Source: an uncultured Methanosarcinales archaeon
GTDB taxonomy: Archaea > Nanobdellota > Nanobdellia > Woesearchaeales > DSVV01
Assembly: GCA_964390375.1 (NCBI GenBank)
Contig: CAYMIF010000002.1
Span: forward strand, 4,191 to 68,190
Direction: 5' to 3'
Length of the DNA: 64,000 nt
Shown here piece by piece: positions 19,303 through 52,725 of the stretch. A program made the position numbers and the translations under genes. Below the pieces are notes generated by a model. That model searched no databases. It was not told the DNA's origin and saw nothing but the letters and a program-made list of their open reading frames with translations. Position 1 is the stretch's first letter; every line of letters begins with the position of its first letter.

Positions 19303-22300
19303 CAGAAAAACCTTTCCATCTCTTGTTCTACCTTGTTTTCTTTCTTTTTCTTCTTGATTATCGTAAACACCGGAACTATCAGGACGATGATGAGGATCAT
19401 GAGCACAAATACAAGTATGGTCTTGACTGCAGACCCGCCTTTCTCTTTATCGATTTCCTCTGCGACTGCAGACGCTGCCTGTCCAGAGAGATCAGATGCT
19501 GGCTCCTCCTCCCTGGTTATGGTCCTTGTCCTTTCTGCTGAAGAGGAAAGCTCAGACTCTTCAGCCACGATGACAAAATTCCCTAGCTTTTCAGAATCGA
19601 TCTTATATGTAGCGTGTCTTGAATCTTCGCTTATCAGTGAAATCCCTACCTCTTTCCACTCCTCGTCATCCAGCATATAAGCCCTGATGCTGTCTAGGTC
19701 TGAATGGCTGTTCTCGATCCATCTTTTGTTGACATTCAAAGAGAACTCTACATCTAGGACCAAATCGTCGCTGATCTCATCTGCGCTCAGCTCGATATAA
19801 TTATATACTGATGAGCCGGGCTTCATGTAGAATACATCACCATCTGGTTCTTCAGACACAGAGATTTCCACATAAGGGTTTTTCATTGTCTCAGACAGCT
19901 TTATATCGACACTGTCTATTGAATATTCGTCTGGCCTGACAGTGATTTTGTCTGTGTACTCAGGCATGACCATCTTGTCATCGTAGCTTTTCGTGTCTAC
20001 CTTGACATCCCTCCTTGGAGCGAAGTTTGATGGGCCGCCTGAACTTGAACCGGAGCTTCTGCTCGAGCCTGAGTTATCATCCTCATCTTCTTCCTCTTCA
20101 TCGACCGGAGCGGTGATTTGGCACGCGCCGCAGTCTTCCTCGCATGTGTTGCAGTCTTCAGAAGAATCGCAGTTGCCGTCTCCGCAGAAAGGCAGTTCTG
20201 CGCCTGTGTCTACGACAAAACTATGTTCATCAGACACTGTCTCTGCCCCGGACATGTCTTCAGAGATGACCTTCCAGTGATACCTTGTGTTGTCAGCTAG
20301 GCTAAGTGTTTTTGAACTCGCTGCAATCTCCTGCTCGTACACGGTTGAGCTTTCATTTCTGACGATCAGTCTGGTGGTCACAGAATCACCTGCATCAATG
20401 TCTGAGCCAGGCATCCACGAGAAATACACTGTTGTGCTGTTTCTCACCGAATTGTCTGATGGCTGTGAAAGTGATGGTTTGGTCGGTGGATCGTTCACAT
20501 TCGTGACAGTCAGCCTGAACGTGTCTGTCGCTGTATTCATTCCATCGCTGATGGTTATTGTTATGTCATGTGAGCCGACCTTGTTGTTGCTCGGGACAAA
20601 TGAGATCATCCCAGAATCCCTGTTTATGTTGAACAGGTTCGTGTTGTCGCTGAACACGACATTATCTCCGTCATCATCAACTGCATTGATGTCATATGTG
20701 AACTGGCTATCTTCTGCCGCTGTCTTGTCTGTCAGCGGTGGTGAGAAATAAGGCGCAGATCCTGCATCAATCTCTCCTGCTATTCTGATTTTCGCGTCTC
20801 CAGATATTCCGCTGATTAAGACGAGTTTGTTTGAGTAGCCGAAGCTCTTGCTGGCTCCGTTTACATATACTTTTGAGGGTTCTGTCTCAGAATATATCTG
20901 GACATTCGTGGAGGAACCTGCACTGATCTTTGCTTCTTTGTAGCCTTCTCTTTGCCTGAGTATTCCTGACGCTTCCTTATTGAACAACATCAGGTTTTGT
21001 CCATTGTAGCTCATTTCTGTTCCGTATGAGACACCGAACATATCATATCTTCCAGTATGTAGATTGGTGCGGAGCATGCACTGCATTCCATTGCACGTAA
21101 CCCCTTCTCCTGCAAAGCTTCCGCTCTCTGTGGTCCTGATGATCACGATGTCCTGATATTCATCTGTCTGGATTCTTGCGCCGTTGTGATTTGCGCCAGA
21201 TATTTTTGTGACTTCCTTGGCATTTTCAAACCCTCCGGTATTTGGGATGTCCAGTTCATCATCTCCATAGTTTGCGACAGATAATATAACTATCTTACCC
21301 TCGACATCAGAGCCGATGATAATCTCTTTATTTTCATCGTCATCCAGATATCCTGTTGCGATACCTGAGAATGAATCTCCGAATTCTCTGTTCTCCAATT
21401 CCTTTCTGTAGTTACTATAGCCAAGGTCATAGATCTCGACCATTGACCACACTGACTGTGACCCTGTCTTGATTATATCCAGCCTTCCTGAACCATCGAC
21501 ATCAGCAAGTTCGATATTAGTAAGAGCATAGGAGCTTATCTCCCCTTCCTTTGATATCGAGCTGCCGTCATATTGATAGATCTCCTCATCGCAGGTTATC
21601 TCAAGATAATCGTCGAAATCAAGATTGCCGGTCTTAATATTATTGCATGCAACGCTTGCCTGCCTCTCTATTCCCAGATCAGTATTGATCACCCTTATCC
21701 TTGAGTCAGATGCAAGCACGATCTCCACAGCGCCGTCCTGGTCAACATCTCCTACATCAAGGTCATTTATCCCTTCTCCCAGGTCAGATGATTTTATAAC
21801 ATTATATCCTCCCTGCGAGAAGTCGATTATCTTTACATATCCTGAATTATCTCCTATCACGATTTCAGGAACTGTATCGTGATCAATGTCTTCCACAGCG
21901 ATGCCTTTGACTATCATCCTTCCAGGATTGAGAGTCGCCTCATGTATATACTGCGATCCGGAATAACCTACGATATTGATCTGGTTATTATCATTTACTG
22001 GGCAAATGATTTCATTGTATCCGTCGTTGTCTATATCGCCTGCAGCGATTTTCGGACCAGTACAGATATCTCCCTGTGTGATTGTTGTGTAATCCCCTCC
22101 GCTGTAGTCGATTATCCGAAGGCCGTTCCTGTTCACAGCGATCTCATCTCTTCCGTCGGAATCAAAGTCCCCTGTTGTGATTGTCTTTGAGCCGCTCATA
22201 CTTTTCTCGACTGTCAGTCCTGATGCCCTGCCGGACGTTTGGATGTCCAGCACTGACAGGAATCTGGCAGAGGTCTTGGCGCCGTTCTGAAATATCTCCA

Positions 22301-25190
22301 TATATGGGCCCGTGACTGGGTCGGATAGCAGGTCATGGCCGTTCCAGCTTGTCTTCACATTGTAGTTGAAATCAGCCGGCTCCAGCACGTTGTATATGAC
22401 TTCGCCTCTGTATCCTGAAGATTGAAGCTTGATCTTGTTTTCTTGTTTTTCGAACCTCTCGGATACTGGTTCGCTTCCCCCCCTCAGATGGTGAAGAATC
22501 TTAAGATCTCTTGCGTTTCCGTCAGTCTTGATGTCATCGAAGACCACCAGATAATCCGGCTTGACAAATACAAGGTGCCTGTCGAACCTTTCGAGCTCAG
22601 GGTCTCCGTTTTCATGATATGGTTCTTTTGCATCCCCTACGATATAATCAAAAAAGTCGGATCCAAAATATGCTTCATTATAGCAGTGGGGACTTCCTGA
22701 ATAAAGCTTTTGGCTGTCTTCGTCATTGTCTACTATAAGAGTGTTATGTCCGATAGTGCTTGCCTTATAAGATGCAGTGCTTCCGAGATGCTTTCCCTGG
22801 TCTGATGCCAGCCAGTCGCCTCCAACATTCAGGATGTAGTGGTTGCAGTCATTTTGGCTTCCGTGGTTGACATCGTCGTGGTCATCTTTCATGCCTAGTA
22901 GTATATCATAGCTCCTCCAGCCAGATCTTGAAAACTGCCATGATACATCTCTAAAATTCCTGGAATATGGTAGGGTGCTGAAATCTTCATGGTCGCTGTC
23001 TTTTTCATACCAAACAAAATCAAGAACATTTGTTCCGACATTGTTCTCTTTCAGCACGTTTCCGGATATTGTATTTTCGTTCTGGCTTGAGAGATAGTTG
23101 GCAAGATGTGAGAAGGAATGTTTTGTGCTGTATAGCGTCTCTCCGAAATTGGCATTCCCGCCTCCGTCTGGAGTTGTCTGGTACACAGAAAAAAGTTGAA
23201 GGTTGTTCAGTCTTTCGTGGTCTGAATAATCGAAGTTCATGACATTCTTCAGCCCATATACTGGCGGCAGGAGCCAGTTTATTGAGCTGGTGCCGTATTG
23301 GAGTCCTTCACGCCATCCTCCATTCTCTCCTATATTGTCTAAAATGTCTTCTACAAGAAGCCTTCCTGTCTCTCCCCATTCCGAAGAATGTTCGTCCTCG
23401 TTATAGACTGCAAGGGCAGGAATCAGGAATCCTCCTACATAATTCACATGGAAATTATTGTTTCTCTTAGCACTCGAGACAGAGAAATATCCCTCTCTGT
23501 CCTTTGCATCGCTATATAGCGGGATTATGCACTTGTCAATCAACGCCTGCCTGATTTCGCCTTGCTTCTGTTCAGAGAATTCCAAAAAAAGCATGTCATA
23601 TGCATAAGCCATTCCCCTGCATATAGATTTGTGGCCAAAATAATAGGTTCCTTCCCAGTTTTCCCACGAGAGGATTGTGTTCACGGAGCTTTTTGCAGGA
23701 GTAAGATATTTGTCGTCTTCTGTCATGACATAAGCGAATGAGAGAGTAAGTAACCTCTCTTCCTCATCCCTCATGCTGTATTCATCATATGAAGGATTTC
23801 CCTGATTAGCATATGAATCTGCTTTGTTTTTTATATCATTCCATATTTCGTTTGGAGATGTACCTAGGTTCCCCTGATCTGTGTCTGTTGTCTTCTGCTT
23901 GAGAGTATTGATTTGCCCTGCACTGAAGAAAAGCTTTGGATGGATATAGAACATAGGAGAATAATCCCTTGTCATGATTGTCGCATGGTTCTTATGTGAT
24001 TTGGTGAAATCGTCCATGGTATTTGCAGCATAAGAACTGGTTTTTCCTGCAATATTCCTGAAGAAAAAATAATAGTCTGCTCCATTGACATTGGACTGCC
24101 ACATATAGATTAGGTCTTCTCCATTATAGTTGTTGTATGTATGGAAATCAGTTTCAGGAATGCCATGGTCCAGTATGCATCCGCCGAAGAAATCTTTCGA
24201 GCCAGTGTCAATGACAGAGAACCATCCATGAGATACATGACCGGAGTTGCTTGCTCCGGAACCAAAAGACCAGGATTGGCTGTCTGTATCTGTCCAGAAA
24301 CTGTCTCCGTCCAGAGAGTCCCCGCCGACATTGACAAGCAGGTATTTGTAATCGTTCATGTTATGTATATCATTTATCTGCAGGAAATTCTCATGGTAGA
24401 TTGTATTTGTGACGCTTTTTGAACCTGATGAAAAATCAATCACTATTCGCACAGGACCTGCAGCCCTGACTGTTGGGCTCAGGCTTCCTCCATCATCAAA
24501 TATTCTGAATTCCTCGATCTGTTCCCTGCCCGAGACCTTTACAGATGTAGGCTGACCGTCCTTGAGCTTTATTATTGTGCTGTCGCCTGCATCGATAGTG
24601 AATTCTTCTGTTGCCTGATTGAATGAATAGCTGAGTCCCTGATAATTAGGTGGTTGATGAGGATTGTCGATAGTGTCAAAATATATATAGAAGTATCTGA
24701 TAGAATTTTGGCTGGTTTCCCCGTCCATTATCCAGACCACCTTGCCTTTTGCATTTGTGTCTGGATCGAAGTCCTCATCAGGCTCAAATTGGGAAGGCAG
24801 TCCAAGATTTGCATCTCCTGCATCGAAAACATATCCTACAGGGTCGTGCTCAATGACCCTGACGGAGTTTAAATCAAACCCCTGGTTTGAGCCAAGCCTT
24901 TGCAGTTCTTCAGTGAAATCGACATCTAGCTCAATAGGATAATCATTCCTGTCAACGCCTCCTGATGACACATTGACAGATATCCTGTACCTGTAATCGT
25001 CATTCCACCATGTCTCATTATAGGGATAATATGCCATATAGCCGGTTATTCCTACAGCATTCTCTTTTCCGAGCATACCTATGATGAAAGATAGCCCGAA
25101 GATTGCGCAGATCAAGGTCATGGCAAGGTAGACTATTACTAGGTTTTTCTTGGTCTCTTGCATTTTCCAAAGACTGATTCTGTATATCAT
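19302..25190 (-). CDS. giant (1962 aa) cell-surface protein: N-terminal signal-anchor, heparinase II/III-like (polysaccharide lyase-like) region, FG-GAP/VCBS beta-propeller repeats, cadherin-like and FN3-like domains, Cys-rich module, acidic linker, C-terminal TM anchor with poly-Lys tail
   Basis: FG-GAP repeats such as DFDSDGRDEIAV, GDIDNDGYNEIICP and GDVDQDGAVEIVLAS. Cadherin-like DDDGDNVVFSDNTNLFNINRDSGMISFVP...ITITISDG. Heparinase_II_III-like block ...GGDWLASDQGKH...GHNTLIVDNDED...LVVFDDIKTDG. C-terminus KTILVFVLMILIIVLIVPVFTIIKKKKKENK. Confidence 0.7.
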   Translation of the reverse strand: MIYRISLWKMQETKKNLVIVYLAMTLICAIFGLSFIIGMLGKENAVGITGYMAYYPYNETWWNDDYRYRISVNVSSGGVDRNDYPIELDVDFTEELQRLGSNQGFDLNSVRVIEHDPVGYVFDAGDANLGLPSQFEPDEDFDPDTNAKGKVVWIMDGETSQNSIRYFYIYFDTIDNPHQPPNYQGLSYSFNQATEEFTIDAGDSTIIKLKDGQPTSVKVSGREQIEEFRIFDDGGSLSPTVRAAGPVRIVIDFSSGSKSVTNTIYHENFLQINDIHNMNDYKYLLVNVGGDSLDGDSFWTDTDSQSWSFGSGASNSGHVSHGWFSVIDTGSKDFFGGCILDHGIPETDFHTYNNYNGEDLIYMWQSNVNGADYYFFFRNIAGKTSSYAANTMDDFTKSHKNHATIMTRDYSPMFYIHPKLFFSAGQINTLKQKTTDTDQGNLGTSPNEIWNDIKNKADSYANQGNPSYDEYSMRDEEERLLTLSFAYVMTEDDKYLTPAKSSVNTILSWENWEGTYYFGHKSICRGMAYAYDMLFLEFSEQKQGEIRQALIDKCIIPLYSDAKDREGYFSVSSAKRNNNFHVNYVGGFLIPALAVYNEDEHSSEWGETGRLLVEDILDNIGENGGWREGLQYGTSSINWLLPPVYGLKNVMNFDYSDHERLNNLQLFSVYQTTPDGGGNANFGETLYSTKHSFSHLANYLSSQNENTISGNVLKENNVGTNVLDFVWYEKDSDHEDFSTLPYSRNFRDVSWQFSRSGWRSYDILLGMKDDHDDVNHGSQNDCNHYILNVGGDWLASDQGKHLGSTASYKASTIGHNTLIVDNDEDSQKLYSGSPHCYNEAYFGSDFFDYIVGDAKEPYHENGDPELERFDRHLVFVKPDYLVVFDDIKTDGNARDLKILHHLRGGSEPVSERFEKQENKIKLQSSGYRGEVIYNVLEPADFNYNVKTSWNGHDLLSDPVTGPYMEIFQNGAKTSARFLSVLDIQTSGRASGLTVEKSMSGSKTITTGDFDSDGRDEIAVNRNGLRIIDYSGGDYTTITQGDICTGPKIAAGDIDNDGYNEIICPVNDNNQINIVGYSGSQYIHEATLNPGRMIVKGIAVEDIDHDTVPEIVIGDNSGYVKIIDFSQGGYNVIKSSDLGEGINDLDVGDVDQDGAVEIVLASDSRIRVINTDLGIERQASVACNNIKTGNLDFDDYLEITCDEEIYQYDGSSISKEGEISSYALTNIELADVDGSGRLDIIKTGSQSVWSMVEIYDLGYSNYRKELENREFGDSFSGIATGYLDDDENKEIIIGSDVEGKIVILSVANYGDDELDIPNTGGFENAKEVTKISGANHNGARIQTDEYQDIVIIRTTESGSFAGEGVTCNGMQCMLRTNLHTGRYDMFGVSYGTEMSYNGQNLMLFNKEASGILRQREGYKEAKISAGSSTNVQIYSETEPSKVYVNGASKSFGYSNKLVLISGISGDAKIRIAGEIDAGSAPYFSPPLTDKTAAEDSQFTYDINAVDDDGDNVVFSDNTNLFNINRDSGMISFVPSNNKVGSHDITITISDGMNTATDTFRLTVTNVNDPPTKPSLSQPSDNSVRNSTTVYFSWMPGSDIDAGDSVTTRLIVRNESSTVYEQEIAASSKTLSLADNTRYHWKVISEDMSGAETVSDEHSFVVDTGAELPFCGDGNCDSSEDCNTCEEDCGACQITAPVDEEEEDEDDNSGSSRSSGSSSGGPSNFAPRRDVKVDTKSYDDKMVMPEYTDKITVRPDEYSIDSVDIKLSETMKNPYVEISVSEEPDGDVFYMKPGSSVYNYIELSADEISDDLVLDVEFSLNVNKRWIENSHSDLDSIRAYMLDDEEWKEVGISLISEDSRHATYKIDSEKLGNFVIVAEESELSSSAERTRTITREEEPASDLSGQAASAVAEEIDKEKGGSAVKTILVFVLMILIIVLIVPVFTIIKKKKKENKVEQEMERFF

Positions 25191-35247: not shown

Positions 35248-35781
35248 TCAATCCAGGATTAATCTTATTTTTTGAATAAATTTTCTTGCATTATCGAATA
35301 TCTCTTCGACCTGCCTTTCAGTGTATCTTTTTATTGCAGAGTATCTTGCAGCATGGCTCTCGACTCTTGCGTCTTCGAAATATTTGACATATTCATCTTC
35401 GAATATCTTATAAGACTGATTGAGCAGTTCTAGGTCTTCCTTTTCCATCTCATTTGGGACCAGAAGATGTCCTAGTGCAATTTGAGCAGCCATATGGTCT
35501 TTTACCTCATAGCCTTTTGAAAGGATTGCAGCTTTTGCACTATAGAGCATTGAATAATATGATATTGTGATAGCCCAATAATTCCAATGAAGTTTTGTCG
35601 GTTCATCGATTCTTGGCTCGATTTCTTTATGGTGGTTGGCTATCATCAGGCTGTTTTCTGCTTTATCAATAAAAAGCTTGATTTTGAAACTGTTCGAAGA
35701 TCGGACAATCCTTTTTTCATCTAGATATTCTTCAAATCTTTTTTGATATTCCTCTTTGTTATATTGCATCGAGTACCACAT
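35248..35781 (-). CDS. HEPN-domain protein (toxin-like partner of adjacent nucleotidyltransferase)
   Basis: ~177 aa helical protein that overlaps the upstream MNT-like gene by 23 nt. The HEPN assignment rests on the pairing and an R..H-like segment (RVESHAARY). Confidence 0.45.
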   Translation of the reverse strand: MWYSMQYNKEEYQKRFEEYLDEKRIVRSSNSFKIKLFIDKAENSLMIANHHKEIEPRIDEPTKLHWNYWAITISYYSMLYSAKAAILSKGYEVKDHMAAQIALGHLLVPNEMEKEDLELLNQSYKIFEDEYVKYFEDARVESHAARYSAIKRYTERQVEEIFDNARKFIQKIRLILD

Positions 35782-36331
35782 TCCAGAAATGGTTTGGATT
35801 ATTTAAGACTATATGGTTCCTCAATGCCTGTTTTCCGACATTCTCTTCATTATCTTTTATCATCTCTTGAAACTCAGGGATCTTTAAGAAAACAGGATTG
35901 ATCTGCTTGTCAAAGATTAACTCGTATTTTGAGAAGGATATCGTCTTATTGCCGGATTTATTGATTATCATAAGATCAATATCGCTTTTTTTTCCTTCTT
36001 CTCCTTTTGCGTAGCTTCCAAATAAGAGTACAATATCTTCTACCCTTAAATCCTTTGATATCTCTCTTATCATTGGATTTCTTTCTAAAAAAGATCTCTT
36101 TTCTTCTTCTGATGAAATTGCAAGGTATGACTGGATTACTGGATTTTGTAGATTAAGTTTTAGTGTCTTGGCTTTTCCTATTTCCTTGATTGCCAGAAGC
36201 TCTTTCATCTTATTTATTGTCCTGTAAAATGAAGCATAAGGAATATGGAGTTTCTTTGAAAGCTCGTGCATAGTAAATTCTTTGTCAAACTCTTTTCCAA
36301 GATGGTTTATGATCATCAATCTATTATCCAT
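35759..36331 (-). CDS. nucleotidyltransferase-domain protein (MNT-like, with N-terminal wHTH)
   Basis: Minimal NTase motif LLFGSYAKGEEGKKSDIDLMII and an N-terminal HTH-like segment. Confidence 0.7.
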   Translation of the reverse strand: MDNRLMIINHLGKEFDKEFTMHELSKKLHIPYASFYRTINKMKELLAIKEIGKAKTLKLNLQNPVIQSYLAISSEEEKRSFLERNPMIREISKDLRVEDIVLLFGSYAKGEEGKKSDIDLMIINKSGNKTISFSKYELIFDKQINPVFLKIPEFQEMIKDNEENVGKQALRNHIVLNNPNHFWNVVLDAI

Positions 36332-36392
36332 ATTTGGATAATGTTATTCATAATTGATATATAAATGTTATGGTCTTCACCTGTTTTTAGAT

Positions 36393-36600
36393 TCTGGACG
36401 TCTGTGCCAGGAGGGCTATTATGAAATCCTAGCCGTCTGTGCCATGAGAGAGAATATTTACAATAGTAAATATTCTCGTGGCCAGGCGGAACCGATGTGA
36501 AACATCGGTGAAGTAGGATAGGATTTCATAATAGCCCATGGCCAGGCAAAACCTATATGTACCAGGGCTGGACTATTATAGGATTTAATAATGGCAGGAA
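36393..36600. repeat. structured palindromic intergenic element, copy B, with flanking partial duplications of its arms
   Basis: 36413..36538 aligns to 5352..5474 (TATGAAATCCTA..GTCTGTGCCA.GAGAGAGAATATTTA..TAAATATTCTC.GGCCAGGCG..[hairpin]..ATAGGATTTCATA.TAGCCC). The second internal hairpin differs in sequence but still pairs (CCGATGtgaaaCATCGG versus GTTTTTAcgcagTAAAAAC). Confidence 0.55.
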
Positions 36601-44433: not shown

Positions 44434-45534
44434 CTAGAATGATTGCTTGTACAGTTCTGTGGTCTTCTCTGCGCAGATGCTCCATCTGAAATTCATTGCC
44501 TTGAGTTTTCCGAACTGCACAGTATTTTCCCTGAATTTTTTGTCTTTTAAGAACTTTCTGATAGCTTTTGCGATTTGTTCTGGAGAATAAGGATTGCACA
44601 ATATTCCCTCTTTTTCGATTATTGAGGGAATACCGCCGACTCTTGATGCGATTATCGGTTTTCCGACAGCCATTGCCTCATAAAGCACTATTGGATTTGA
44701 TTCATAGGTGCTGACAAGAGCAACAGCAGTGCAGTTGCGGTAATATTTAAGCAGTGTCTTGTCAGCGACTGCCTTTTCAGAGAAGAAAACCTTGCTGTAT
44801 TTGTTTTTTATAGCTGTTGCTTTGAGTTCGTCAAGATAAGCCTGATCATTGCAGGGACCTATTATCTTCAGGTCTATCCTGGCCAGCTCGCATGCACGGA
44901 TCATTGTTCTTAGGTTCTTGACACGCACGACTCTTCCGACGAAAAGTACGTATCTATCATCCTTAAGCTTCCCTTTGAAATACTCATCATCAATCCCGTT
45001 TGGGATGACTGTGATATCCTTTGCACCTCTTTTCTTCAGTTGAGGCACCAGATTCTCAGATACTGATATTATCCTCTTGATTCTCTTTAGCTGGATATCC
45101 TCGAGATAGGCCCATATTGTATCATGGATCTTTGCAGAGATACTGGTCTCTGCATCCTTTCGATGGGATATCAGTGAATGTACTGTCAGGATGACTGGGT
45201 AGCTGTTTGCAAGTTTTTGTGCAGCATGTCCGTATGGTGCGCCGATCATATGTGCATGCACCACATCCGGTTTGATCGATTTGACTTTCTTGATAATCCT
45301 GCTGGAATCTGTCGTGATTCCGGATATGGTTCTCGGAAGCATTGATTCCTTAAGCATGTGGACCCTCAGGTTCTTTTTTCTTTTCCTGGCATCTGACTTA
45401 TGGTTGAATATAGAGATTAAATGCACCTCCCATTTCGGATTTCGTTCAGAGATAGATTTAGCAAGATGATGCACATGTCTCTCCACTCCGCCGGTGAATA
45501 CATCTGTCCATGGTCCGAGTATCGCGACTTTCAT
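44434..45534 (-). CDS. glycosyltransferase family 4
   Basis: ALVSTYESNPIVLYEAMAVGKPIIASRVGGIPSII. Confidence 0.75.
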   Translation of the reverse strand: MKVAILGPWTDVFTGGVERHVHHLAKSISERNPKWEVHLISIFNHKSDARKRKKNLRVHMLKESMLPRTISGITTDSSRIIKKVKSIKPDVVHAHMIGAPYGHAAQKLANSYPVILTVHSLISHRKDAETSISAKIHDTIWAYLEDIQLKRIKRIISVSENLVPQLKKRGAKDITVIPNGIDDEYFKGKLKDDRYVLFVGRVVRVKNLRTMIRACELARIDLKIIGPCNDQAYLDELKATAIKNKYSKVFFSEKAVADKTLLKYYRNCTAVALVSTYESNPIVLYEAMAVGKPIIASRVGGIPSIIEKEGILCNPYSPEQIAKAIRKFLKDKKFRENTVQFGKLKAMNFRWSICAEKTTELYKQSF

Positions 45535-47549
45535 ATGATCTCCTCATATATCTTTTTGGTCTCTTCAGAAGTCTGATCAAACGAGAATCCGTAAGCAGCT
45601 GACCTACATTCCCTTTCTGCCTGGTCTTTAGGAATTTGAAGTACCTCCAGGATTGCAGATGAAAATGCTGCAACATCAGGTTTGACGATCCTGCCGCAGT
45701 ACTTGTTCCTGACAAACTCTCGAACCCTGCCGACAGGTACAGTCACAACAGGCGTTCCGCAGGCCATGGCCTCCTGCACAACAAGAGGTCCTGACTCATA
45801 CTCGCTGAAAAGCACGACTGCATCTGCCATGTTATACAGATCGACCAGATTTTCCCTGCTCTGTGAACCTAGATAATAAATTCCCTCACTATGCGCAAGA
45901 TTATCCTTCTCAGCCCCTTCGCCAGCGATTAGCAGTTTCAGTCCTTTCTCTTTTTCTTTTGCAAGCTGGAAAGCTTCGATGATCCTGTCTACGTTCTTGT
46001 CTTTCCTGAGTCTTCCGCAATACAGCAGGATCTTGTCCTTTTTGCTTATTTTTATTTTGTGCTTATCAGTTATCGTCTTGTGATCGATGTTCTTTGGTTT
46101 GAACGTCTCAGTATCTACGCCTATATGTATCACTCTTGCCTTGTCTTTTAATGCCGGATACCTCTTGAGGTATCTCTTCTTGATATCATCAGACACGAAT
46201 ATCACGCGCCTGGCTCTGGAAAGTACCATTCGCTCGATGATTGAATACACCCATCCCACGACCTTTCCCTTCTTGCGCTTGATTGCTGTTCTATCATCGC
46301 CGTGTATTGTCACGACTAGTTTTTTTGAGAATATGAACCTAAGCGCGTAGAGTACGTTTTGGGCAGCTATTATGCCTTCTGGCTTTGAAGAAAACAGGCT
46401 CAGAAAATATCTCATACTTGAGCGGCAGTCTCCTGGCACTATGTTTATTTTCATATGTTTTTTCAGATCAAGTATATAGCTTGACGTGCCTCCGAGATTA
46501 TTCTTGCCCTCTTTTGTATGATAGACGATATTTATCCGCTCTTCTTTCCTGGTCGCAAGCTCGATCATGAAACTTGTCAGATCGATTTTGTCCTCGAAAA
46601 GCTTTTTCCTGCGCTTTTCCCATGTAGCCTGGGCATCCTTGTCGGTCACAAGCGCCAGAGCCTTCGCAAGCGCTTTTTTAGGGTCTTTTATAGAGAACAT
46701 AAGCTTGTATTTTCTTTCAAGCTCATCGAAGTTGCTCATCTGTCCGACAAACTCATTGCACCTGACAACAGGCACTCCCAGGCACGCACCCTCCGTTGCC
46801 ATGGTCTGCGAGTCGCCGACATAAAGCTTTGCTCCTTTCATGACAGAGTGCATTTTCTCAGGAGCAAGCTTCAGCCTGAATCTCTCAAGTTCCTTTGGCA
46901 TCTCTGCCTCAGAGGTGATATAGACATGAGCGTGTTTTGCCAGTTCCTTTGCGAACTTGATTTTCCACTCCAGGCTGAATCCTCCTTTGCCAGCATCATG
47001 CTGTGCAGCAAAGTTCACGAACCTCATGACAACATATGGCTTTTTAAGTCCTTTGATCTTATCTTCGTAGAACCATTTCGGATGCAGGTATGAAAGTTCC
47101 TTGAATCCGTTATACCGCACATGTTTCTTTCCGAGGTCGATAGAGAATCCTTTAGGTGTGACTATTTGGTTTGCGAATGGTTTCATGAGCCTAAACTGCC
47201 AGATCATAAGATCAGTGTCTTCGAATATTATTGACTTGACACCCAAAAGCCATGCTACCTGTGCGATATAGCAGTTGCCTGACGCCCCAATCATCAAATC
47301 CGGTTTGAATCGCTTCGCGATCTTGATGATTTTCCAGTCGATTGCGAACATTCCGATGGCTTTCTTTATCCCAGAGTACCCTTTTCCTCTTTTCTCATAG
47401 GGCAGGCTGTAAGCATCCAGAAGCTTTATCGCGACATCTTTGTCCCGCGCAGAGAAAAGCACAGCATGCCCGTTCTTCATCATCTCTTTTGCGAAATTCT
47501 TGAATAAGTGCACGTGCGCAGGATGCCCTATATCTATTAGTATTCTCAT
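45531..47549 (-). CDS. fusion protein: N-terminal DUF354 (epimerase/GT28-like Rossmann domain) + C-terminal GT4 glycosyltransferase
   Basis: The N-terminus MRILIDIGHPAHVHLFKN is characteristic of DUF354. The C-terminal half carries LFSEYESGPLVVQEAMACGTPVVTVPVG. Confidence 0.6.
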   Translation of the reverse strand: MRILIDIGHPAHVHLFKNFAKEMMKNGHAVLFSARDKDVAIKLLDAYSLPYEKRGKGYSGIKKAIGMFAIDWKIIKIAKRFKPDLMIGASGNCYIAQVAWLLGVKSIIFEDTDLMIWQFRLMKPFANQIVTPKGFSIDLGKKHVRYNGFKELSYLHPKWFYEDKIKGLKKPYVVMRFVNFAAQHDAGKGGFSLEWKIKFAKELAKHAHVYITSEAEMPKELERFRLKLAPEKMHSVMKGAKLYVGDSQTMATEGACLGVPVVRCNEFVGQMSNFDELERKYKLMFSIKDPKKALAKALALVTDKDAQATWEKRRKKLFEDKIDLTSFMIELATRKEERINIVYHTKEGKNNLGGTSSYILDLKKHMKINIVPGDCRSSMRYFLSLFSSKPEGIIAAQNVLYALRFIFSKKLVVTIHGDDRTAIKRKKGKVVGWVYSIIERMVLSRARRVIFVSDDIKKRYLKRYPALKDKARVIHIGVDTETFKPKNIDHKTITDKHKIKISKKDKILLYCGRLRKDKNVDRIIEAFQLAKEKEKGLKLLIAGEGAEKDNLAHSEGIYYLGSQSRENLVDLYNMADAVVLFSEYESGPLVVQEAMACGTPVVTVPVGRVREFVRNKYCGRIVKPDVAAFSSAILEVLQIPKDQAERECRSAAYGFSFDQTSEETKKIYEEII

Positions 47550-47793
47550 TCTAATATTTACCTTTTTTTAGTGGGACTAAGTGAACGAAGTGAACGCATG
47601 TCGCACATCGCTTACAATTGGCGAAAGAATTGTGCACGTGCGCAGGATGCCCTATATCTATTAGTATTCTCATTCTAAGATTTACCCTTTTTTAGTGGGA
47701 CTAAGTGAACGCATGTCGCACATCGCTTACAATTGGCGAAAGAATTGTGCACGTGCGCAGGATGCCCTATGTCTATTAGTATTCTCATCCTAA
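47508..47793. repeat. tandem direct repeat, ~2.4 copies of a 115-124 bp unit, each containing the start codon and first 14 codons (MRILIDIGHPAHVH) of the DUF354-GT4 gene plus ~75 bp of its upstream region
   Basis: Copy boundaries are 47508, 47632 and 47747. Copy 1 carries an internal 9-bp duplication (aagtgaacg). Copy 3 is truncated and has a single mismatch (tatgtct vs tatatct). Confidence 0.85.
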
Positions 47794-47839
47794 AATTCCA
47801 CCTTCTATGAGTCTCCTCATTCTCAGATCTCACCTTGAT

Positions 47840-48886
47840 TCATTTCAGATATCTGATAATGATATCTGCGATACGCTCTGCAGTCTTTCCGTTGCCGTAT
47901 ATCTTCTTTGAAAAGTCGATCTTCTTGTTTTCCATCTTCTTGACTTTCCTCACGATATCGTCCGGATCTGCCTTGCACAGAACGTTCCACTTTCCCAGCG
48001 ATTCCACCCATTCTGTATGTTCCCTGACTGTCACGCAGGCTTTTTTTGAGAAATACGCCTCTTTTTGGACTCCTCCTGAATCAGTGAGCACAAGCCTGCA
48101 CGAATTTAGGAGCTTTTGGAATTCCGCTCTTCCGACAGGGATTATGAGCTTGACGTTCTTTGGCTTGATATTGTATTCTGCGACTTTTGTCTTTGTCCTT
48201 GGATGTATAGGGAAGACAACTGGTCTGCAAAGCCTGGCAAAGCCTTCAAATATGTTCTGAAGCTTCTTCTTATCGTCAGTATTAGCTGCCCTGTGGATTG
48301 TCGCGAGATAGAAATCCCCATGATCAAGCAAAATAGGCACTCTGATCAGTGAATTGATATATCTATAAGAGTCATACATGATGTCTCCTGTCTTATATAC
48401 TCCTTTTTTGATGCCTTCATTTGCGAGATTCTCTATCGCTGAATTAGTCGAACAGAAATGAAGCGATGAAAGATGGTCTGTCACGACCCTGTTCACCTCT
48501 TCGGGCATCCTTCTGTCGAATGATCTCATCCCTGCCTCGACATGTGCTATAGGGATATTCAGTTTTGCTGCAGCAAGCGCTCCGGCTGCAGTCGAGTTCG
48601 TGTCTCCATAGACTATAACCAGGTCTGGTTTGGTCCGAATCATCAGCTCTTCAAGTTTGTCGAGCATAAGCCCAGTCATCTTCCCATGCGAAAGAGAGGA
48701 TATCCCCAGATTGTGGTTTGGGCTTTTGAGTTTCAGCTCAGAAAAGAACAACTCAGACATGTTCTTGTCGAAATGCTGTCCTGTATGCACGAGCACCTCT
48801 TTTATTTTCCGTTTGCGCAATGCTTTTGATACCATCGCAGCCTTGACGAATTGCGGTCTTGCTCCGACAATGTTCATGATCTTCAT
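47840..48886 (-). CDS. wecB: UDP-N-acetylglucosamine 2-epimerase (non-hydrolysing)
   Basis: MKIMNIVGARPQFVKAAMVSKAL..., HTGQHFD, DSGGVQKEA and a ~350 aa length. Confidence 0.85.
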   Translation of the reverse strand: MKIMNIVGARPQFVKAAMVSKALRKRKIKEVLVHTGQHFDKNMSELFFSELKLKSPNHNLGISSLSHGKMTGLMLDKLEELMIRTKPDLVIVYGDTNSTAAGALAAAKLNIPIAHVEAGMRSFDRRMPEEVNRVVTDHLSSLHFCSTNSAIENLANEGIKKGVYKTGDIMYDSYRYINSLIRVPILLDHGDFYLATIHRAANTDDKKKLQNIFEGFARLCRPVVFPIHPRTKTKVAEYNIKPKNVKLIIPVGRAEFQKLLNSCRLVLTDSGGVQKEAYFSKKACVTVREHTEWVESLGKWNVLCKADPDDIVRKVKKMENKKIDFSKKIYGNGKTAERIADIIIRYLK

Positions 48887-49896
48887 GATAGATACACCAC
48901 TTTCTCAAATATCAGCGCCAGCGTCCCGAAGAGGATTACAAGAGCATAATTGATGATGACTGTCTGTTTTTCAGTGAGCCTCCAGTAATATGGGAAAAGG
49001 AATTTCATCTTAAGAGGATTTGGAGCGATTATTGTTCCATCCTTTCTGATTCCTCCGAACTTGACAAACTCTTTTTTGGTTACGAGGATATAGACATACA
49101 TCAGGAAATCGACGATATGAGGTATGAATATGATTACACCGAACCAATAGGCTTTTGTCATTATGATAAATGCCCCTATCGCGCTTCCGACCATGAGACA
49201 CCCAACATTGCCCCAGATCATCTTCGATGGGAACCTGTCATACAAAAAATATGCGACAGTAGCGCCGAATATTGGTATCAGCAGAAGAAGATGCATGTAT
49301 TCTCCGTACATGATCGATCGAATGCCCAGGAATGTCATGATGATTATGCTCATGCCAGAGGCAAGGCCGTTGAAACCCGAATGCATGTTGACAAGATTGG
49401 CGATTACCATGACATACATCGGAGCGAGTATAAAAGACATCACCCATCCGAAATCATATTGGAAAAAAAAGAAATCCACGACGCGGTCCTGCAGGAGGAA
49501 CATGACCGGAACCGCCATGAACATAGTGGCAAGGATCTTCGCAAGATGATTTATTTGTATCATGTCGTCTAGGAATCCGAATGTGCCGAAAGTGAGCACG
49601 ATAAAATAGAACACATAGAGCATTAGCATGAATCTTTCAAAGTCCAGCATCTCCATTGAGGATGAGAAGAAAAAAAGTACCTGTGTCAGAACGATCGAGA
49701 CCATAAGCCCGACAAATATCGCAAGTCCGCCCATGTTCGCGATCTTCGGTTTTTTCTTCTTGTACATGTCTGTACATGTAAGGCCTTTTTCATGGAACTT
49801 GTTTATCAGCCACTGTGCGATCCAGTAGCAGGTGAAGAAGCTGTAGCAGAATATGACCACGAGCTTGTAAAACACTCTCAGTTCTATCGGTTCCAT
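48883..49896 (-). CDS. GT4-family polyprenyl-phosphate N-acetylhexosamine-1-phosphate transferase (MraY/WecA/AglH-like)
   Basis: 10-11 TM protein with MraY/WecA-type loops (NMGGLAIFVG, NLVNMHSGFNGLASG). Confidence 0.7.
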   Translation of the reverse strand: MEPIELRVFYKLVVIFCYSFFTCYWIAQWLINKFHEKGLTCTDMYKKKKPKIANMGGLAIFVGLMVSIVLTQVLFFFSSSMEMLDFERFMLMLYVFYFIVLTFGTFGFLDDMIQINHLAKILATMFMAVPVMFLLQDRVVDFFFFQYDFGWVMSFILAPMYVMVIANLVNMHSGFNGLASGMSIIIMTFLGIRSIMYGEYMHLLLLIPIFGATVAYFLYDRFPSKMIWGNVGCLMVGSAIGAFIIMTKAYWFGVIIFIPHIVDFLMYVYILVTKKEFVKFGGIRKDGTIIAPNPLKMKFLFPYYWRLTEKQTVIINYALVILFGTLALIFEKVVYLS

Positions 49897-50642
49897 TTTC
49901 CTTCCCTGATGAGCTCCTCCTTCTTTTTCTCATTGGAATGCTCAACAGCATCAATATACTCGCTTTTGAAATTATCTTTCAGGATCTTTATATTAGGCAT
50001 TAGGCAGTGCCCCCCGATATATCCCGGGAACATGGCCGGCCTTGGGATCTTCTGGTCGATATCGATTGTGCAGGTCTCTGAGAACCTGGTCGCTGCTTCT
50101 TCAAAATCAGCCCCTGCCTCTCGGCACAGCCTCTCCATCTCCTGGTGCCATCCGATCATGACTGCGTAGTAAGAGGTTGACAGGAGTTTTCCTATCTCGC
50201 TGTTCACTGCCTTGGACAATACCTCAGTATTCACTCCGAGCTTTTCAAAATGCTGTTTTGCAAGCTCTGCTGCCTCTGGTGTTGCGCCTCCGATGAACTT
50301 CACGTACTTCTTGAGTCCCTCCACAAGATTGGGGTGCCTGCCGCGCACAGGAGAATGTGCGACCTGTTTTTTGGTATTCTCGTATATCCTCATCGTAGTA
50401 CCTGGCGCAACAGTCGAGTTTATTATGGTTATCCCAGGGTCATATTGTTTTATATAATCAGTGACTATTGTCTCGAATTTGTCTGAATAAGGGATGCAGA
50501 CATGGCAGACATCGATCGAATCATTGACCTCTATGTCCTCTATGTCTTTCTTGAAAAGTTTCGCATCAGGCATCTTCTCTTCAATGATCTTGATGATTGA
50601 GCTTCCGATTTCTCCTGTACCGATCACGATTATGTTTGTCAT
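49884..50642 (-). CDS. NAD-binding dehydrogenase resembling the N-terminal and central domains of UDP-sugar 6-dehydrogenases (WbpA-like?), unusually short (252 aa)
   Basis: N-terminal GxGxxG (IIVIGTGEIGSSI) and a catalytic-Cys-like GYIGGHCLMPNIKIL (compare GGSCFPKD). No C-terminal UDP-binding domain is present. Confidence 0.35.
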   Translation of the reverse strand: MTNIIVIGTGEIGSSIIKIIEEKMPDAKLFKKDIEDIEVNDSIDVCHVCIPYSDKFETIVTDYIKQYDPGITIINSTVAPGTTMRIYENTKKQVAHSPVRGRHPNLVEGLKKYVKFIGGATPEAAELAKQHFEKLGVNTEVLSKAVNSEIGKLLSTSYYAVMIGWHQEMERLCREAGADFEEAATRFSETCTIDIDQKIPRPAMFPGYIGGHCLMPNIKILKDNFKSEYIDAVEHSNEKKKEELIREGKWNR

Positions 50643-51634
50643 ATGTTCACCGCCTTATGCTCTTTTTCAGATTCTATCAGCTTGTTTGCAAGAAGTATTG
50701 CCATCCTGCCGTCGAAAGGAGACACGATGTCAGCTTCGCCGGTCGATATGAATCTGGCAAACTCTGCAAGTTCCTCGCGCAGAGGCTCCTTTGAGTTGAT
50801 CAGGATCTTTGTCATGTTGCCTTCCAGGACGTTTTGTACGATGTCTGAATAGCTGTAGTCTTTCTCTGAGAGCGCCCTGTTCTCATAGAAATAAAGTGCC
50901 TGTGTGATATAGTCCGCAACAAACATCCCTTTCTCGCCAAGAACAGTCAGTTTCCTGATCTTCTTTGGTGTCAGCCAGTTCACGTTGAGGCTTCCGATGC
51001 AGCCTGATTCGAATTTCAGTGTTCCGCAAAGAAGGTCTTCATTGGAGGTGTGTATGTTCTGCTCGCATTCTGCATAGACCCTGACAACTTCGGATTCTGC
51101 GATGAATCTCATGATATCCAGGTCATGAACAGACAGGTCCCTGATCACTCCGACATCCCTGATCCTCGGAGGGAAAGGTCCTGCCCTGTCAGCGTGTATC
51201 TTGAATATCTTTCCGAGTTCGCCGTTCTTGACCCTTCTCTTCAGTTCCCGGATAGCAGGATTGAATCTCTCTATGTGTCCTATAGATATCCTGACTCCCT
51301 TTTCTTCGGATAGACTGATGATCTCGTCTGCTTCCTCGACAGTTGCAGAGATAGGTTTCTCTATAAGCGCAGATATTCCAGCATTGATGACGTCCTTTGC
51401 GGCCTGCAGGTGGAATGATGTCGGAACAACTATCGATACTGCATCCAGATCGACTGTTGATAGCATCTCATGATGGTTTGTGAATCCTTTTGTGTTGTAT
51501 CGCTTCGATATCAGATCGACCCTTTCCTGGTCAGTGTCACAAACTGCAGCAAGCTCAAAGTCTGAAAGGTCATTGTATATTCTTGCATGGTTCTTTCCCA
51601 TGTTTCCCAGCCCGATCACTGCTACCTTTATCAT
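50639..51634 (-). CDS. Gfo/Idh/MocA-family NAD-dependent oxidoreductase (WbpB-like UDP-GlcNAcA 3-dehydrogenase candidate)
   Basis: MIKVAVIGLGNMGKNHARIY Rossmann N-terminus and a Gfo/Idh/MocA C-terminal domain. Confidence 0.75.
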   Translation of the reverse strand: MIKVAVIGLGNMGKNHARIYNDLSDFELAAVCDTDQERVDLISKRYNTKGFTNHHEMLSTVDLDAVSIVVPTSFHLQAAKDVINAGISALIEKPISATVEEADEIISLSEEKGVRISIGHIERFNPAIRELKRRVKNGELGKIFKIHADRAGPFPPRIRDVGVIRDLSVHDLDIMRFIAESEVVRVYAECEQNIHTSNEDLLCGTLKFESGCIGSLNVNWLTPKKIRKLTVLGEKGMFVADYITQALYFYENRALSEKDYSYSDIVQNVLEGNMTKILINSKEPLREELAEFARFISTGEADIVSPFDGRMAILLANKLIESEKEHKAVNI

Positions 51635-52725
51635 TTGACCGCCTCTTTTACTGTCTCGATTATCTTGCTTATGTCCTCCTCAGACAGCCTCGGATGAACA
51701 GGAAGTGATATGCATCTTTTTGCGGTCTCCTCAGATACAGGAAAATCTCCTTCAGAATATCCCATATTTCCGAAATGTGGATGCAGATGCAGAGGCTTTG
51801 GGTAGAACACTGCGCAGCCGCATCCCTGCTCTTTGATCTTGTTCATGATCTCATCCCGCTTTTCTGGGTCGACAAGTATGGTATATTGATGGAAGACATG
51901 CTTTGCTTCTGGTGATGCAGCCGGCACAACCACTTCAGGTATATCTGCCAGCCCTTTGCTGAGTGCTTCTGCGTTCTTCTGTCTCTTTTCATTGTATTCA
52001 TCGATTTTTCCGAGCTGTACAAGCCCGATTGCAGCAGCGATGTTGGTCATCCTGTAGTTGTATCCTATATCATAGTATTGGTATCTTGTCTTCTCTGACT
52101 GGCCATGATGCCTAAATCTTCTGCAAAGCTCAGCATATTCATCATTGTTTGTCGTCACGACTCCTCCTTCTCCGCACATCAGGTTCTTTGTGGCATAGAG
52201 GGAGAATCCTGCGATATCAGCGACATTACCGGCTCGGCTGCCGGATATTTCTGCTCCGACTGCCTGAGCAGCATCCTCGACTACTTTCAGTCCGTGCTTC
52301 TGCGCGATGTTTAGGATAGCATCATAATCTGCCATCTGTCCGAACAGGTCCACCGCGACTATGGCTTTTGTCTTATCTGTTATCTTCTTCTCGATCTCTT
52401 TTGGGTCTATGTTGAAGCTATCTTTTTTTATGTCAGCGAACACGACCTTTGCATTCTGCATAAGGATTGCGTTTGCGCTGGCGACAAAAGTGAAAGGCGA
52501 GGTGATAACCTCATCCCCTTCTCTTATGCCTATTGCATAAAGAGCAGTATGAAGTGCGGCAGTGCCTGAGTTTACAGCAACAGCATTTCTGCACCCGCAA
52601 TACTCAGCGAATCTCTTCTCGAATTCTGCAACTTCCTTGCCCTGTGCTAGCATCCCTGAATCCAGGACCTCAAGCACAGCTTTCTTGTCTTCTTCAGTGA
52701 TTGTTGGTTTTACGACAGGAATCAT
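51631..52725 (-). CDS. DegT/DnrJ/EryC1/StrS-family PLP-dependent sugar aminotransferase (WbpE-like)
   Basis: Typical family layout, with a PLP-lysine region (FSLYATKNL) and N-terminal MIPVVKPTITEEDKKAV. Confidence 0.8.
   Translation of the reverse strand: MIPVVKPTITEEDKKAVLEVLDSGMLAQGKEVAEFEKRFAEYCGCRNAVAVNSGTAALHTALYAIGIREGDEVITSPFTFVASANAILMQNAKVVFADIKKDSFNIDPKEIEKKITDKTKAIVAVDLFGQMADYDAILNIAQKHGLKVVEDAAQAVGAEISGSRAGNVADIAGFSLYATKNLMCGEGGVVTTNNDEYAELCRRFRHHGQSEKTRYQYYDIGYNYRMTNIAAAIGLVQLGKIDEYNEKRQKNAEALSKGLADIPEVVVPAASPEAKHVFHQYTILVDPEKRDEIMNKIKEQGCGCAVFYPKPLHLHPHFGNMGYSEGDFPVSEETAKRCISLPVHPRLSEEDISKIIETVKEAVK

Follow-up and report, generated by a model that had tools for sequence, protein, structure and literature searches.

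A glycosyltransferase gene of a DPANN archaeon was found to carry its translation start in three head-to-tail copies, and the number of copies differs between close relatives. The array was located on the minus strand within a stretch of 64,000 nucleotides, here called the window. As judged from the sequence, the duplicated element is a translation initiation region and not a promoter. We consider it fairly likely that the start of this gene, which codes for a DUF354-GT4 fusion protein, was duplicated repeatedly and recombined unequally to give the array, and that the effect of the array is neutral or mild.

Flanking genes

The array is situated between two genes of the minus strand. Upstream lies wecB (47840-48886), coding for a non-hydrolysing UDP-GlcNAc 2-epimerase (Pfam Epimerase_2, 2e-101; TIGR00236, 280 bits at a cutoff of 210). 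Downstream follows the gene of the DUF354-GT4 fusion glycosyltransferase (45531-47549; 672 aa), with Pfam DUF354 at residues 2-309 and Glycos_transf_1 at residues 494-644. The domains of both proteins agree with the names that the original prediction had given to the flanks, and the N-terminus MRILIDIGHPAHVH is the conserved family start of the DUF354-GT4 protein. wecB is the final gene of a nucleotide-sugar and priming-transferase module, and the array marks the border between this sugar-synthesis module and a glycosyltransferase module within roughly 25 kb of clustered glycan genes, in a neighbourhood of surface-structure genes. Since neighbouring genes overlap by 4-20 nt, the DUF354-GT4 gene is operon-internal.

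Exact look-ups of wecB, of the window glycosyltransferase and of the peptides of the two short upstream open reading frames (uORFs) described below matched no record. Among genome contigs no close relative of the glycosyltransferase was found (best 38%, a Cellulophaga), and in metagenome contigs the protein has relatives of 22-35% only. Matches to "DUF354" in a literature search were limited to unrelated DUF354x. Informative relatives were obtained via members of the protein cluster, and three related contigs in databases (L005, L006 and L007) were compared with the window.

Structure of the repeat array

The 42-nt string ATGAGAATACTAATAGATATAGGGCATCCTGCGCACGTGCAC, which encodes MRILIDIGHPAHVH, occurs three times on the minus strand, where none would be expected by chance. 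The proximal copy (47508-47549) is an exact match and is the true gene start; the middle copy (47632-47673) is identical to it. The distal copy (47747-47788), again an ATG with 13 further codons, has a single mismatch, the synonymous exchange GAT>GAC. A repeat search gave start-to-start spacings of 124 and 115 nt. The next 42 nt after the repeat are also present in two exact occurrences, at 47590-47631 and 47705-47746. Three copies comprising the start codon and the first 14 codons, as well as the point difference in the third of them, had been proposed for this region and were found as described.

The copies are separated by two spacers, both on the minus strand. X73 (47674-47746) has no second copy in the window and is missing in the unduplicated allele described below. 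X82 (47550-47631) contains the 9-bp micro-duplication that had been noted before, two copies of AAGTGAACG at 47579-47596, and has a weak Shine-Dalgarno sequence, AAGGTA, directly 5' of the real ATG. Two further differences between the proximal and the middle unit were found at the 3' end of the spacer. The junction GTGCAC/AATTC is constant across all units of the window and of L007, and the units are thus arranged head to tail. The differences that are private to the distal copy, one in the window and two in L007, are all synonymous and in third positions.

Tandem Repeats Finder missed the large repeat at every threshold that was applied. We also searched upstream of the other gene starts of the window for a copy of the start itself. 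None of the 47 starts had one, the best match (16/24) being at background level. A palindrome at the end of the repeat, GCACGTGC, was considered as a breakpoint signal and rejected, as it is not conserved (L005-L007 carry CATGTG).

Copy number in related alleles

In L006, wecB is followed by 51 nt (U51) and then by the ATG of the glycosyltransferase gene. No trace of X is present, and this allele therefore has 0 extra units, compared with 2 in the window allele. L007 consists of U51, 42 nt, X82, 42 nt, X82 and 42 nt, where the contig ends. L005, from the same sample as L007, begins 5 nt inside X82 and continues into the gene; the copy number of L007/L005, at least 2 extra units, is a lower bound. 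The 0-unit and the multi-unit alleles belong to separate JGI samples (3300035633 and 3300034152). The length variation among related strains that the original prediction had suggested looking for does exist.

The flanks of L006 and L007/L005 are 98.9-99.3% identical: the 790 nt leading up to the array differ at one position, and the initial 228 nt of the gene at none. The window lineage shows 84-92% identity overall to these relatives, yet its junctions are identical to theirs. X82 and the spacer 5' of the gene in L005 agree in 76 of 77 nt (98.7%). Across lineages that have diverged by about 10% this value might suggest a special conservation of X, an idea that we rejected since identity is distributed as a mosaic and the block containing the array is itself at about 97%. 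Identity between the lineages varies along the cluster in blocks of 70-100%, and from this mosaic we conclude that recombination is frequent in the cluster.

The window comes from a metagenome-assembled contig and assemblies of another sample broke at the array, as might happen if the repeats were an assembly artefact. The same junctions were, however, obtained from different sources in an independent assembly of other data, which speaks against an artefact, and the units are distinguished by variants of their own. As another explanation of this kind the repeated region could be a cis-regulatory structured RNA, a leader or riboswitch. The predicted folds were no better than those of shuffled sequences (z-scores of -0.74, -0.33, +0.80 and -0.24) and an Rfam search of the region gave no match. 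We regard an artefact or a structured RNA as a very improbable explanation.

The array had further been expected to confuse automated start-site calling. This is borne out by the JGI gene call in L006, which places the start at a GTG that precedes the ATG by 45 nt.

An older duplicate in the native spacer

U51 (47789-47839, minus strand) is present in every allele, the unduplicated one included. Its sequence is the same in L006 and L007, and the window differs from them at 3 positions. Two Shine-Dalgarno-like sites are found in it, AAGGTGA at 47830-47836 and AAGGTGG at 47798-47804. Inspection of this spacer uncovered a decayed 32-nt tandem duplicate, u1 (47805-47836, minus strand), comprising a Shine-Dalgarno site, a spacer, an ATG and the first 5 codons. 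Its partner u2 (47773-47804) is made up of the last 16 nt of U51 and the first 16 nt of the distal copy. The two match at 24 of 32 positions at a lag of 32, a value reached by none of 2000 shuffles (maximum 21), and u1 is found in L006 and L007 as well. This older layer consists of native contiguous sequence, as a simple tandem duplication should. As the native 51-nt spacer already holds a duplicate, the start region has been duplicated repeatedly.

u1 opens a mini-ORF of 11 codons (47785-47820, minus strand), with the translation MRRLIEGGILG, whose TGA overlaps the distal ATG (ATGA). The counterpart in L006 and L007 reads MRRLIEGGISG.

Origin of the spacer X

The extra unit consists of the 42-nt gene start and X, and the second part is not native to the unduplicated allele, since X is missing in L006. 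The 3'-terminal 16 nt of X, AAGGGTAAATCTTAGA, represent the translation initiation region in a third version (12/16 matches to u1, 11/16 to u2). A search for X in the rest of the window by blastn-short gave chance 8-12-mers only. The first 26 or so nt of X show a weak likeness to codons 18-23 of the gene, with p about 0.01-0.07 for the L006 allele and no significance for the window allele; when X was aligned locally to U51 and to the gene, the outcome was non-significant or marginal. A 22-mer of X had 0 matches in metagenome contigs, a collection from which the X-bearing JGI contigs are evidently missing; viral contigs, phages and plasmids likewise yielded 0 matches to X. The frame-2 peptide of X, ILSPIVSDVRHAFT, matched only itself in the six frames of the sequences examined. 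A functional Cys-rich micro-protein (CKRCATC) was likewise considered for X and dropped, as no evidence supports it. As no source of X was detected, the unit is not explained by native sequence having simply been duplicated in tandem. Were X a decayed copy, the 98-100% identity of the 42-nt core would be hard to account for unless gene conversion were assumed.

As an alternative, X and 42 nt could have been imported together with a foreign DUF354 gene by homologous recombination within the gene combined with illegitimate joining behind codon 14, unequal crossing-over between the 42-nt copies having followed later. Such an allelic replacement would agree with the absence of X from the unduplicated allele and of a source for it in the window, and also with the end of X, which, homologous to the native initiation region but diverged (69-75%), is what one would expect of the orthologous spacer of another lineage. 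It would further fit the frequent recombination of the mosaic cluster, the position at the border of the two modules and the restriction of distal-copy differences to synonymous sites, as is seen between two functional alleles. The mechanism and comparable scars are known from bacteria (PMC3240628, PMC5361080). Against an import stands the lack of a donor, given that X was not matched in metagenome contigs, viral contigs, phages or plasmids. Moreover, with a spacer that had diverged by 30%, a donor would be expected to show more than 1-2 differences in the 42 nt of coding sequence. We know of no demonstration of homology-facilitated illegitimate recombination in archaea. Overall we hold an allelic replacement to be a possible, tentative explanation of the unit.

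X is flanked by exact 42-nt direct repeats, and 42 nt is a typical length for the att sites of archaeal integrases. The repeats could therefore be read as attL/attR-like sites and X as the residue of a mobile element. With its 73-82 nt X contains neither an integrase gene nor any other gene, though, and neither X nor the 42-mer has a match in viral contigs, phages or plasmids. The identical tandem units favour unequal crossing-over and X ends in 16 nt akin to the native initiation region, so that we give a mobile-element remnant hardly any credit.

Absence of a promoter motif

The unit had originally been described as a duplicated promoter of the glycosyltransferase gene. Transcription-unit starts of the window are marked by TTTAWAWA (at most 1 mismatch), mostly 26-34 nt before the start codon. 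Between 47450 and 47900 this motif, again with at most 1 mismatch, is absent from both strands, and the unit contains no archaeal promoter with TATA/BRE about 25-30 nt before a transcript start. A scan for sigma-70 promoters and terminators found none; it uses a bacterial model that is inapplicable to archaea.

A promoter duplication, in which copy number would act as dosage or as a transcriptional switch, could be argued from the position of the variable array directly upstream of the gene and from A/T-rich stretches in X (CTAAAAAAAGGTAAATATTAGA) that are loosely TATA-like at two mismatches. The A/T-rich stretch lies at -22 to -2, too close for a transcript that includes the adjacent ATG. The operon-internal position of the gene also argues against a promoter, as does the unduplicated allele, where X is missing and so is not native upstream sequence; this allele retains the 51-nt spacer with Shine-Dalgarno sites only. 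The promoter claim thus failed, and we consider a promoter duplication very improbable. As the unit is devoid of a promoter, transcription should start from the upstream operon promoter.

Short open reading frames and translation

Both surplus copies of the 42-nt repeat open a short ORF in the window, as had been predicted with a length of about 37 aa. The first uORF (47675-47788, minus strand; MRILIDIGHPAHVHNSFANCKRCATCVHLVPLKKGKS) comprises 37 codons and its TAG ends 1 nt before the middle ATG. The second (47551-47673, minus strand) has 40 codons and ends with a TAG 1 nt before the real ATG. Together with the mini-ORF the stop-start distances are -4 (ATGA, 47785-47788) and +1 nt (TAG-A-ATG, 47671-47677 and 47547-47553). 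Coupling by termination-reinitiation in archaea requires overlaps or very short distances (PMC10666635, PMC6728339), and the stops and starts of the array lie at such distances. Since every short ORF either overlaps the next ATG with its stop or terminates 1 nt ahead of it, the real ORF stays intact and ribosomes could be handed on.

Pairing of the Shine-Dalgarno sites with an anti-Shine-Dalgarno sequence that was assumed to be canonical, the window containing no 16S rRNA gene, is predicted at -8.5 and -7.7 kcal/mol for the sites in U51 before the first two ATGs, at -4.7 for X73 and at -4.0 for X82. The median of the operon genes is -7.1 kcal/mol.

All three alleles keep the ORF of the real gene and its start undamaged, and a change of copy number alters neither the frame nor the promoter spacing. 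Of the length-variable expression switch that had been envisaged, the variable length therefore holds (0, 2 and at least 2 extra units) and the switch does not, as the ORF is intact and no promoter is present. On these grounds the array could at most tune translation in a graded manner.

It could be argued that the chain of ORFs is kept by selection, as a relay that depends on the copy number and sets the amount of glycosyltransferase relative to the sugar-synthesis enzymes encoded upstream; as recombination added and removed units, the surface glycan would vary in a heritable and reversible way. Several observations fit this idea. Both duplication layers end their ORFs exactly at the next start (ATGA; TAG-A-ATG), and the Shine-Dalgarno site before the real ATG is weaker in the array alleles. 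Alleles with 0 and with several units occur in 99%-identical backgrounds, the array is retained in two lineages that have diverged by about 10%, other gene starts of the window are free of such duplications and the coupling mechanism is established in archaea (PMC6728339, PMC10666635). However, each ATG owes the stop in front of it to the native initiation region. TTAG is already found at the same position in U51 of the window, and for this reason the arrangement of stop and start need not be selected. A stop at the next start would occur in two of three reading frames anyway, the intact gene in every allele means that there is no OFF state, and the related contigs number three only. A selected relay thus appears rather unlikely to us.

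Discussion

We favour repeated duplication and unequal recombination of the gene start, and from the alleles at hand we infer the following course. A Shine-Dalgarno site, the ATG and the first codons would have been duplicated repeatedly within a long cell-surface glycan operon. The first layer would be the old 32-nt duplicate, which is fixed in all known alleles, and the second the younger units of 115/124 nt, each consisting of the 42-nt gene start and 73/82 nt of X. Homologous recombination between the 42-nt repeats would expand, contract or remove the younger array. A slipped-strand or unequal-recombination origin had been proposed at the outset and is consistent with the head-to-tail units and the varying copy number. 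The surplus ATGs open ORFs of 11, 37 and 40 codons, from which ribosomes may be passed to the next start through termination-reinitiation. The real ATG of array alleles would lie behind a weaker Shine-Dalgarno site and may depend in part on this relay. Translation of the glycosyltransferase would then be unchanged or moderately lowered, with no on/off behaviour; the array is probably neutral or mildly lowers translation.

Reversible tandem duplications are known from the pneumococcal capsule genes cap3A and wchA (serotype 8), as cited in a passage of PMC4022640. Like the array described here, they lie in a surface-polysaccharide locus, duplicate tens to hundreds of bases in tandem and are made and removed by recombination or slippage between direct repeats, and duplicated and unduplicated alleles occur in near-identical genomes. 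The cap3A/wchA duplications reportedly turn the capsule off, and their precise removal restores it. The pneumococcal duplication disrupts the ORF within which it is situated (ON/OFF), whereas in the array the last copy always restores the intact gene; there is no OFF state because the unit includes the start codon and the ribosome-binding site. The archaeal host and the 73-82 nt in each unit that are foreign to the unduplicated allele are further differences.

The array also resembles bacterial contingency loci (PMC4235727), where a repeat tract lies at the 5' end of a surface-glycan gene and the copy number differs among close relatives. Contingency loci have units of 1-9 nt, in contrast to a few copies of 115-124 nt in the array, where a change in copy number leaves the reading frame and the promoter spacing unshifted. 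Another likeness is with the orphan immunity-gene arrays of the Vibrio cholerae T6SS (PMC5361080; mechanism PMC3240628), in which short duplicated pieces of conserved gene ends are found at the border of a conserved and a variable module in a frequently recombining locus. Here the host is an archaeon and no donor was found. The repeated units are identical to each other, which argues for amplification rather than successive imports.

With known termination-reinitiation coupling in archaea and bacteria (PMC6728339, PMC10666635) the array shares the position inside an operon and an ATGA (-4) or TAG-A-ATG spacing in the working range. Unlike those of known coupled pairs, the upstream ORFs are no genes but 11-40-codon by-products of duplicating the start of the downstream gene; three of them are arranged in series, and coupling at the array is a prediction.

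If only recombination is at work, the array is a clean natural case of direct repeats of only 42 nt that grow, shrink and disappear in the glycan cluster of an archaeon. It is also an example of how gene callers and assemblers fail at such structures, since contigs were broken in one sample and the start codon was mis-called in another. DPANN symbionts live attached to host cells and are exposed to viruses, and to our knowledge almost no repeat-based phase variation has been documented in archaea. A further reading, which we likewise hold to be rather unlikely, would be a recombination-driven "uORF ladder". Each duplicated start would add an ORF that passes ribosomes on, unequal crossing-over would alter the number of rungs between near-identical cells, and this number would set the ratio of glycosyltransferase to sugar-precursor enzymes in a heritable, reversible and graded way. 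If this were true, tuning would be brought about by uORFs stacked from the gene's own start, as opposed to frameshifting repeats or invertible promoters. Should copy number indeed tune translation, the array would represent a new archaeal route to surface-glycan variation.

Genomic context of the array

The source sequence is a metagenome-assembled contig. Its genes in the window include an aIF5B-type IF2 and a class-I GluRS, and since the named relatives of this GluRS are Woesearchaeota/Nanobdellota, the host is a DPANN archaeon. The array is located inside a long run of co-oriented, mostly overlapping genes that starts near 53,326 and continues to 36,690 or lower. Upstream of it are found an acetyltransferase, a DegT aminotransferase, an archaeal-type UDP-GlcNAc 3-dehydrogenase, a short dehydrogenase-like gene, a PF00953 priming transferase and wecB; a series of GT4 glycosyltransferases follows downstream. 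The array thus sits where a precursor module meets a transferase module, and it occupies the sole sizeable gap in this part of the operon.

A 252-aa ORF of the precursor module (49884-50642, minus strand), equally long in the related contig L006, aligns solely with the middle of nucleotide-sugar dehydrogenases, which are about 410 aa at full length; a dehydrogenase gene may have been truncated or split here. Near the glycan cluster, two products are possibly surface or adhesion proteins: that of a very large, 1962-aa ORF (19302-25190, minus) and a protein of 901 aa (13752-16457, minus) carrying a right-handed beta-helix and DUF5123. Inside the cluster, an NTP_transf_2 nucleotidyltransferase and HEPN gene pair with its own TATA box (35248-36331, minus) looks like a putative toxin-antitoxin module. 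The pair adjoins copy B of an element of about 125 nt that is present twice in unrelated intergenic gaps (5352-5476 and 36414-36539; partial copy 36379-36425). Its fold is a three-way structure of very high stability with a closing stem of 19-20 bp (plus-strand MFE -59 and -73 kcal/mol; z -9.5 and -12.5). One of its hairpins differs wholly in sequence between the copies with the pairing kept (GUUUUUAC/GUAAAAAC versus ACCGAUGU/ACAUCGGU). Rfam gave no match for it even at E<=1, and the element is a candidate for a new small RNA or a MITE.

Anatomy of the array

The gap between wecB (47840-48886) and the gene for the DUF354+GT4 fusion glycosyltransferase (45531-47549), both on the minus strand like all array parts, comprises 290 nt. 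Read in gene orientation, the stretch up to and including the gene start (47508-47839) begins with a 51-nt spacer, U51 (47789-47839). There follow a distal 42-mer (47747-47788, ATG...CAC, encoding MRILIDIGHPAHVH, one synonymous difference), the 73-nt spacer X73 (47674-47746), a middle 42-mer (47632-47673), the 82-nt spacer X82 (47550-47631), which equals X73 except for two point differences and an added 9-bp micro-duplication, and the proximal 42-mer (47508-47549), the real gene start. In pattern searches the 42-mer was found three times and the adjacent 42 nt twice, with none expected by chance. A repeat search gave periods of 124 and 115 nt; TRF reported only the micro-duplication here. The surplus ATGs begin two ORFs, 37 and 40 codons long, both ending with a TAG 1 nt before the next ATG. 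The original prediction had described the repeat correctly.

The 14 codons of the 42-mer encode the N-terminal motif that is best conserved in the DUF354 family. The DUF354 profile and the homologues show that the gene truly starts at the ATG. The reading frame stays open 5' of this ATG as far as a GTG in the spacer (L006 4827-5174; window 47675-47833); JGI placed its gene call in L006 at this GTG, 45 nt too far upstream, and an ORF of 52 aa starts from the same GTG in the window.

The repeated part is an initiation region

The array had been interpreted as a promoter duplication. Transcription units in the window carry a TTTAWAWA box (at most one mismatch), mostly 26-34 nt before the start codon, for example upstream of the starts 5302, 7710, 16457, 25190, 25443, 36331, 53489 and 58578. 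This position indicates that most mRNAs of the DPANN host are leaderless or have a very short leader. Operon-internal genes have GAGGTGA-like Shine-Dalgarno (SD) sites instead. No TTTAWAWA match was found in 47450-47900 on either strand at the same threshold, and the A/T-rich end of X (-22 to -2) is too near the adjacent ATG to serve as TATA. Moreover, X cannot be the native promoter region of the gene, because the unduplicated allele lacks it. What is repeated is the translation initiation region with the first 14 codons.

An older duplication lies in U51, where a decayed 32-nt tandem duplicate, u1 (AAGGTGAGATCTGAGAATGAGGAGACTCATAG, 47805-47836) and u2 (AAGGTGGAATTTTAGGATGAGAATACTAATAG, 47773-47804), matches at 24 of 32 positions (maximum of 21 in 2000 shuffles). 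It covers SD, spacer, ATG and five codons, and is common to the window, L006 and L007. The duplicate gives rise to a mini-ORF of 11 codons with a TGA that overlaps the following ATG (ATGA); lacking the duplicate, the ancestral spacer between wecB and the gene would have measured 19 nt. The last 16 nt of X, AAGGGTAAATCTTAGA, are yet another version of the initiation region, the third (12/16 versus u1, 11/16 versus u2). At least two duplications, differing in unit length, have therefore affected the start region. No such upstream self-copy was found at other gene starts in the window (n=47).

Length variation among related alleles

No close relative was found in species-representative genomes or the metagenome contig collection; three JGI contigs were reached via protein clusters. 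In L006 (sample 3300035633) wecB and a near-identical U51 are followed directly by the gene ATG, with a single 42-mer and no X. L007 (sample 3300034152) reads wecB-U51-42-X82-42-X82 and ends 19 nt into a third 42-mer. L005, from the same sample, starts 5 nt inside X82 and runs into the gene (protein 91% identical to that of the window). The alleles thus have 0 units (L006), two units with X73 and X82 (window) and at least two units with X82 (L007/L005), the last being a lower bound since both contigs break within a perfect 124-nt repeat. The predicted length variability was borne out.

The flanks of L006 and L007/L005 are 98.9-99.3% identical, with one mismatch in 790 nt before the array, an identical U51 and no mismatch over 228 nt from the gene start. 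The window lineage is 84-92% identical to both overall, strongly mosaic (69% to 100% across 100-nt windows), with the same array junctions and 98.7% identity in X. This conservation is unexceptional, because the array is situated in a block of about 97% identity. In the sugar-precursor module (47200-52660 versus L006), stretches of 95-100% identity are interspersed with others of 69-80%, e.g., 48312-48460 and 51311-51610. The mosaic suggests that the cluster recombines often. Most simply, the array originated once and was lost in L006 via recombination between 42-mers; transfer of the array block between lineages is also possible.

We considered two alternatives for the origin of X, whose source was not found in the rest of the window, the related loci, or viral, phage and plasmid collections. 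The first 26 nt or so of X share TTTCGCCAA...AAG.GATG with codons 18-23 at a roughly colinear position, a marginal similarity in the L006 allele (p about 0.01-0.07) that is not significant in the window allele. First, about -16 to +99 may have been duplicated in tandem in the distant past, the non-functional parts having decayed and the 42-nt core being held identical by conversion with the functional start. Second, another strain could have supplied X plus 42 nt, with homologous recombination acting in the gene and illegitimate joining behind codon 14 (the mechanism is described in PMC3240628, similar scars in PMC5361080); unequal crossing-over would have followed. The mosaic cluster fits import, as does the finding that the distal copy differs at synonymous sites only. 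Related initiation regions would be expected under both alternatives, and both remain.

Predicted translation through the array

The operon promoter would drive read-through transcription across the array; the gap contains no sense-strand oligo-T tract, and folding and Rfam did not indicate a structured RNA. Assuming a canonical anti-SD, the predicted SD pairing is -8.5 kcal/mol 3 nt past the wecB stop, -7.7 at the gene ATG of the 0-unit allele and -4.0 in X82 (operon median -7.1). In the 0-unit allele a ribosome leaving wecB would meet a good SD, read the 11-codon mini-ORF and terminate on the gene ATG, which also has its own SD. In array alleles the same arrangement would feed a 37-codon and then a 40-codon uORF, with only the weak X82 SD and a stop 1 nt upstream preceding the real ATG. 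Archaeal termination-reinitiation is limited to overlaps or very short distances (PMC6728339, PMC10666635); the stop-start distances in the array are -4 and +1. Translation of the gene would be expected to persist, possibly lowered and falling with unit number.

Repeat-based contingency loci and duplications in pneumococcal capsule genes are the closest known cases. The latter are reported to be reversible tandem duplications (PMC4022640). A surface-glycan locus and a presence/absence polymorphism are common to these systems and the array, whereas here the unit is long and partly without a traced origin, the host is archaeal, the gene is never interrupted and no promoter is involved. The promoter-switch interpretation is not supported. 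The array is a real, somewhat unusual structural polymorphism and might, less probably, act as a translational rheostat.
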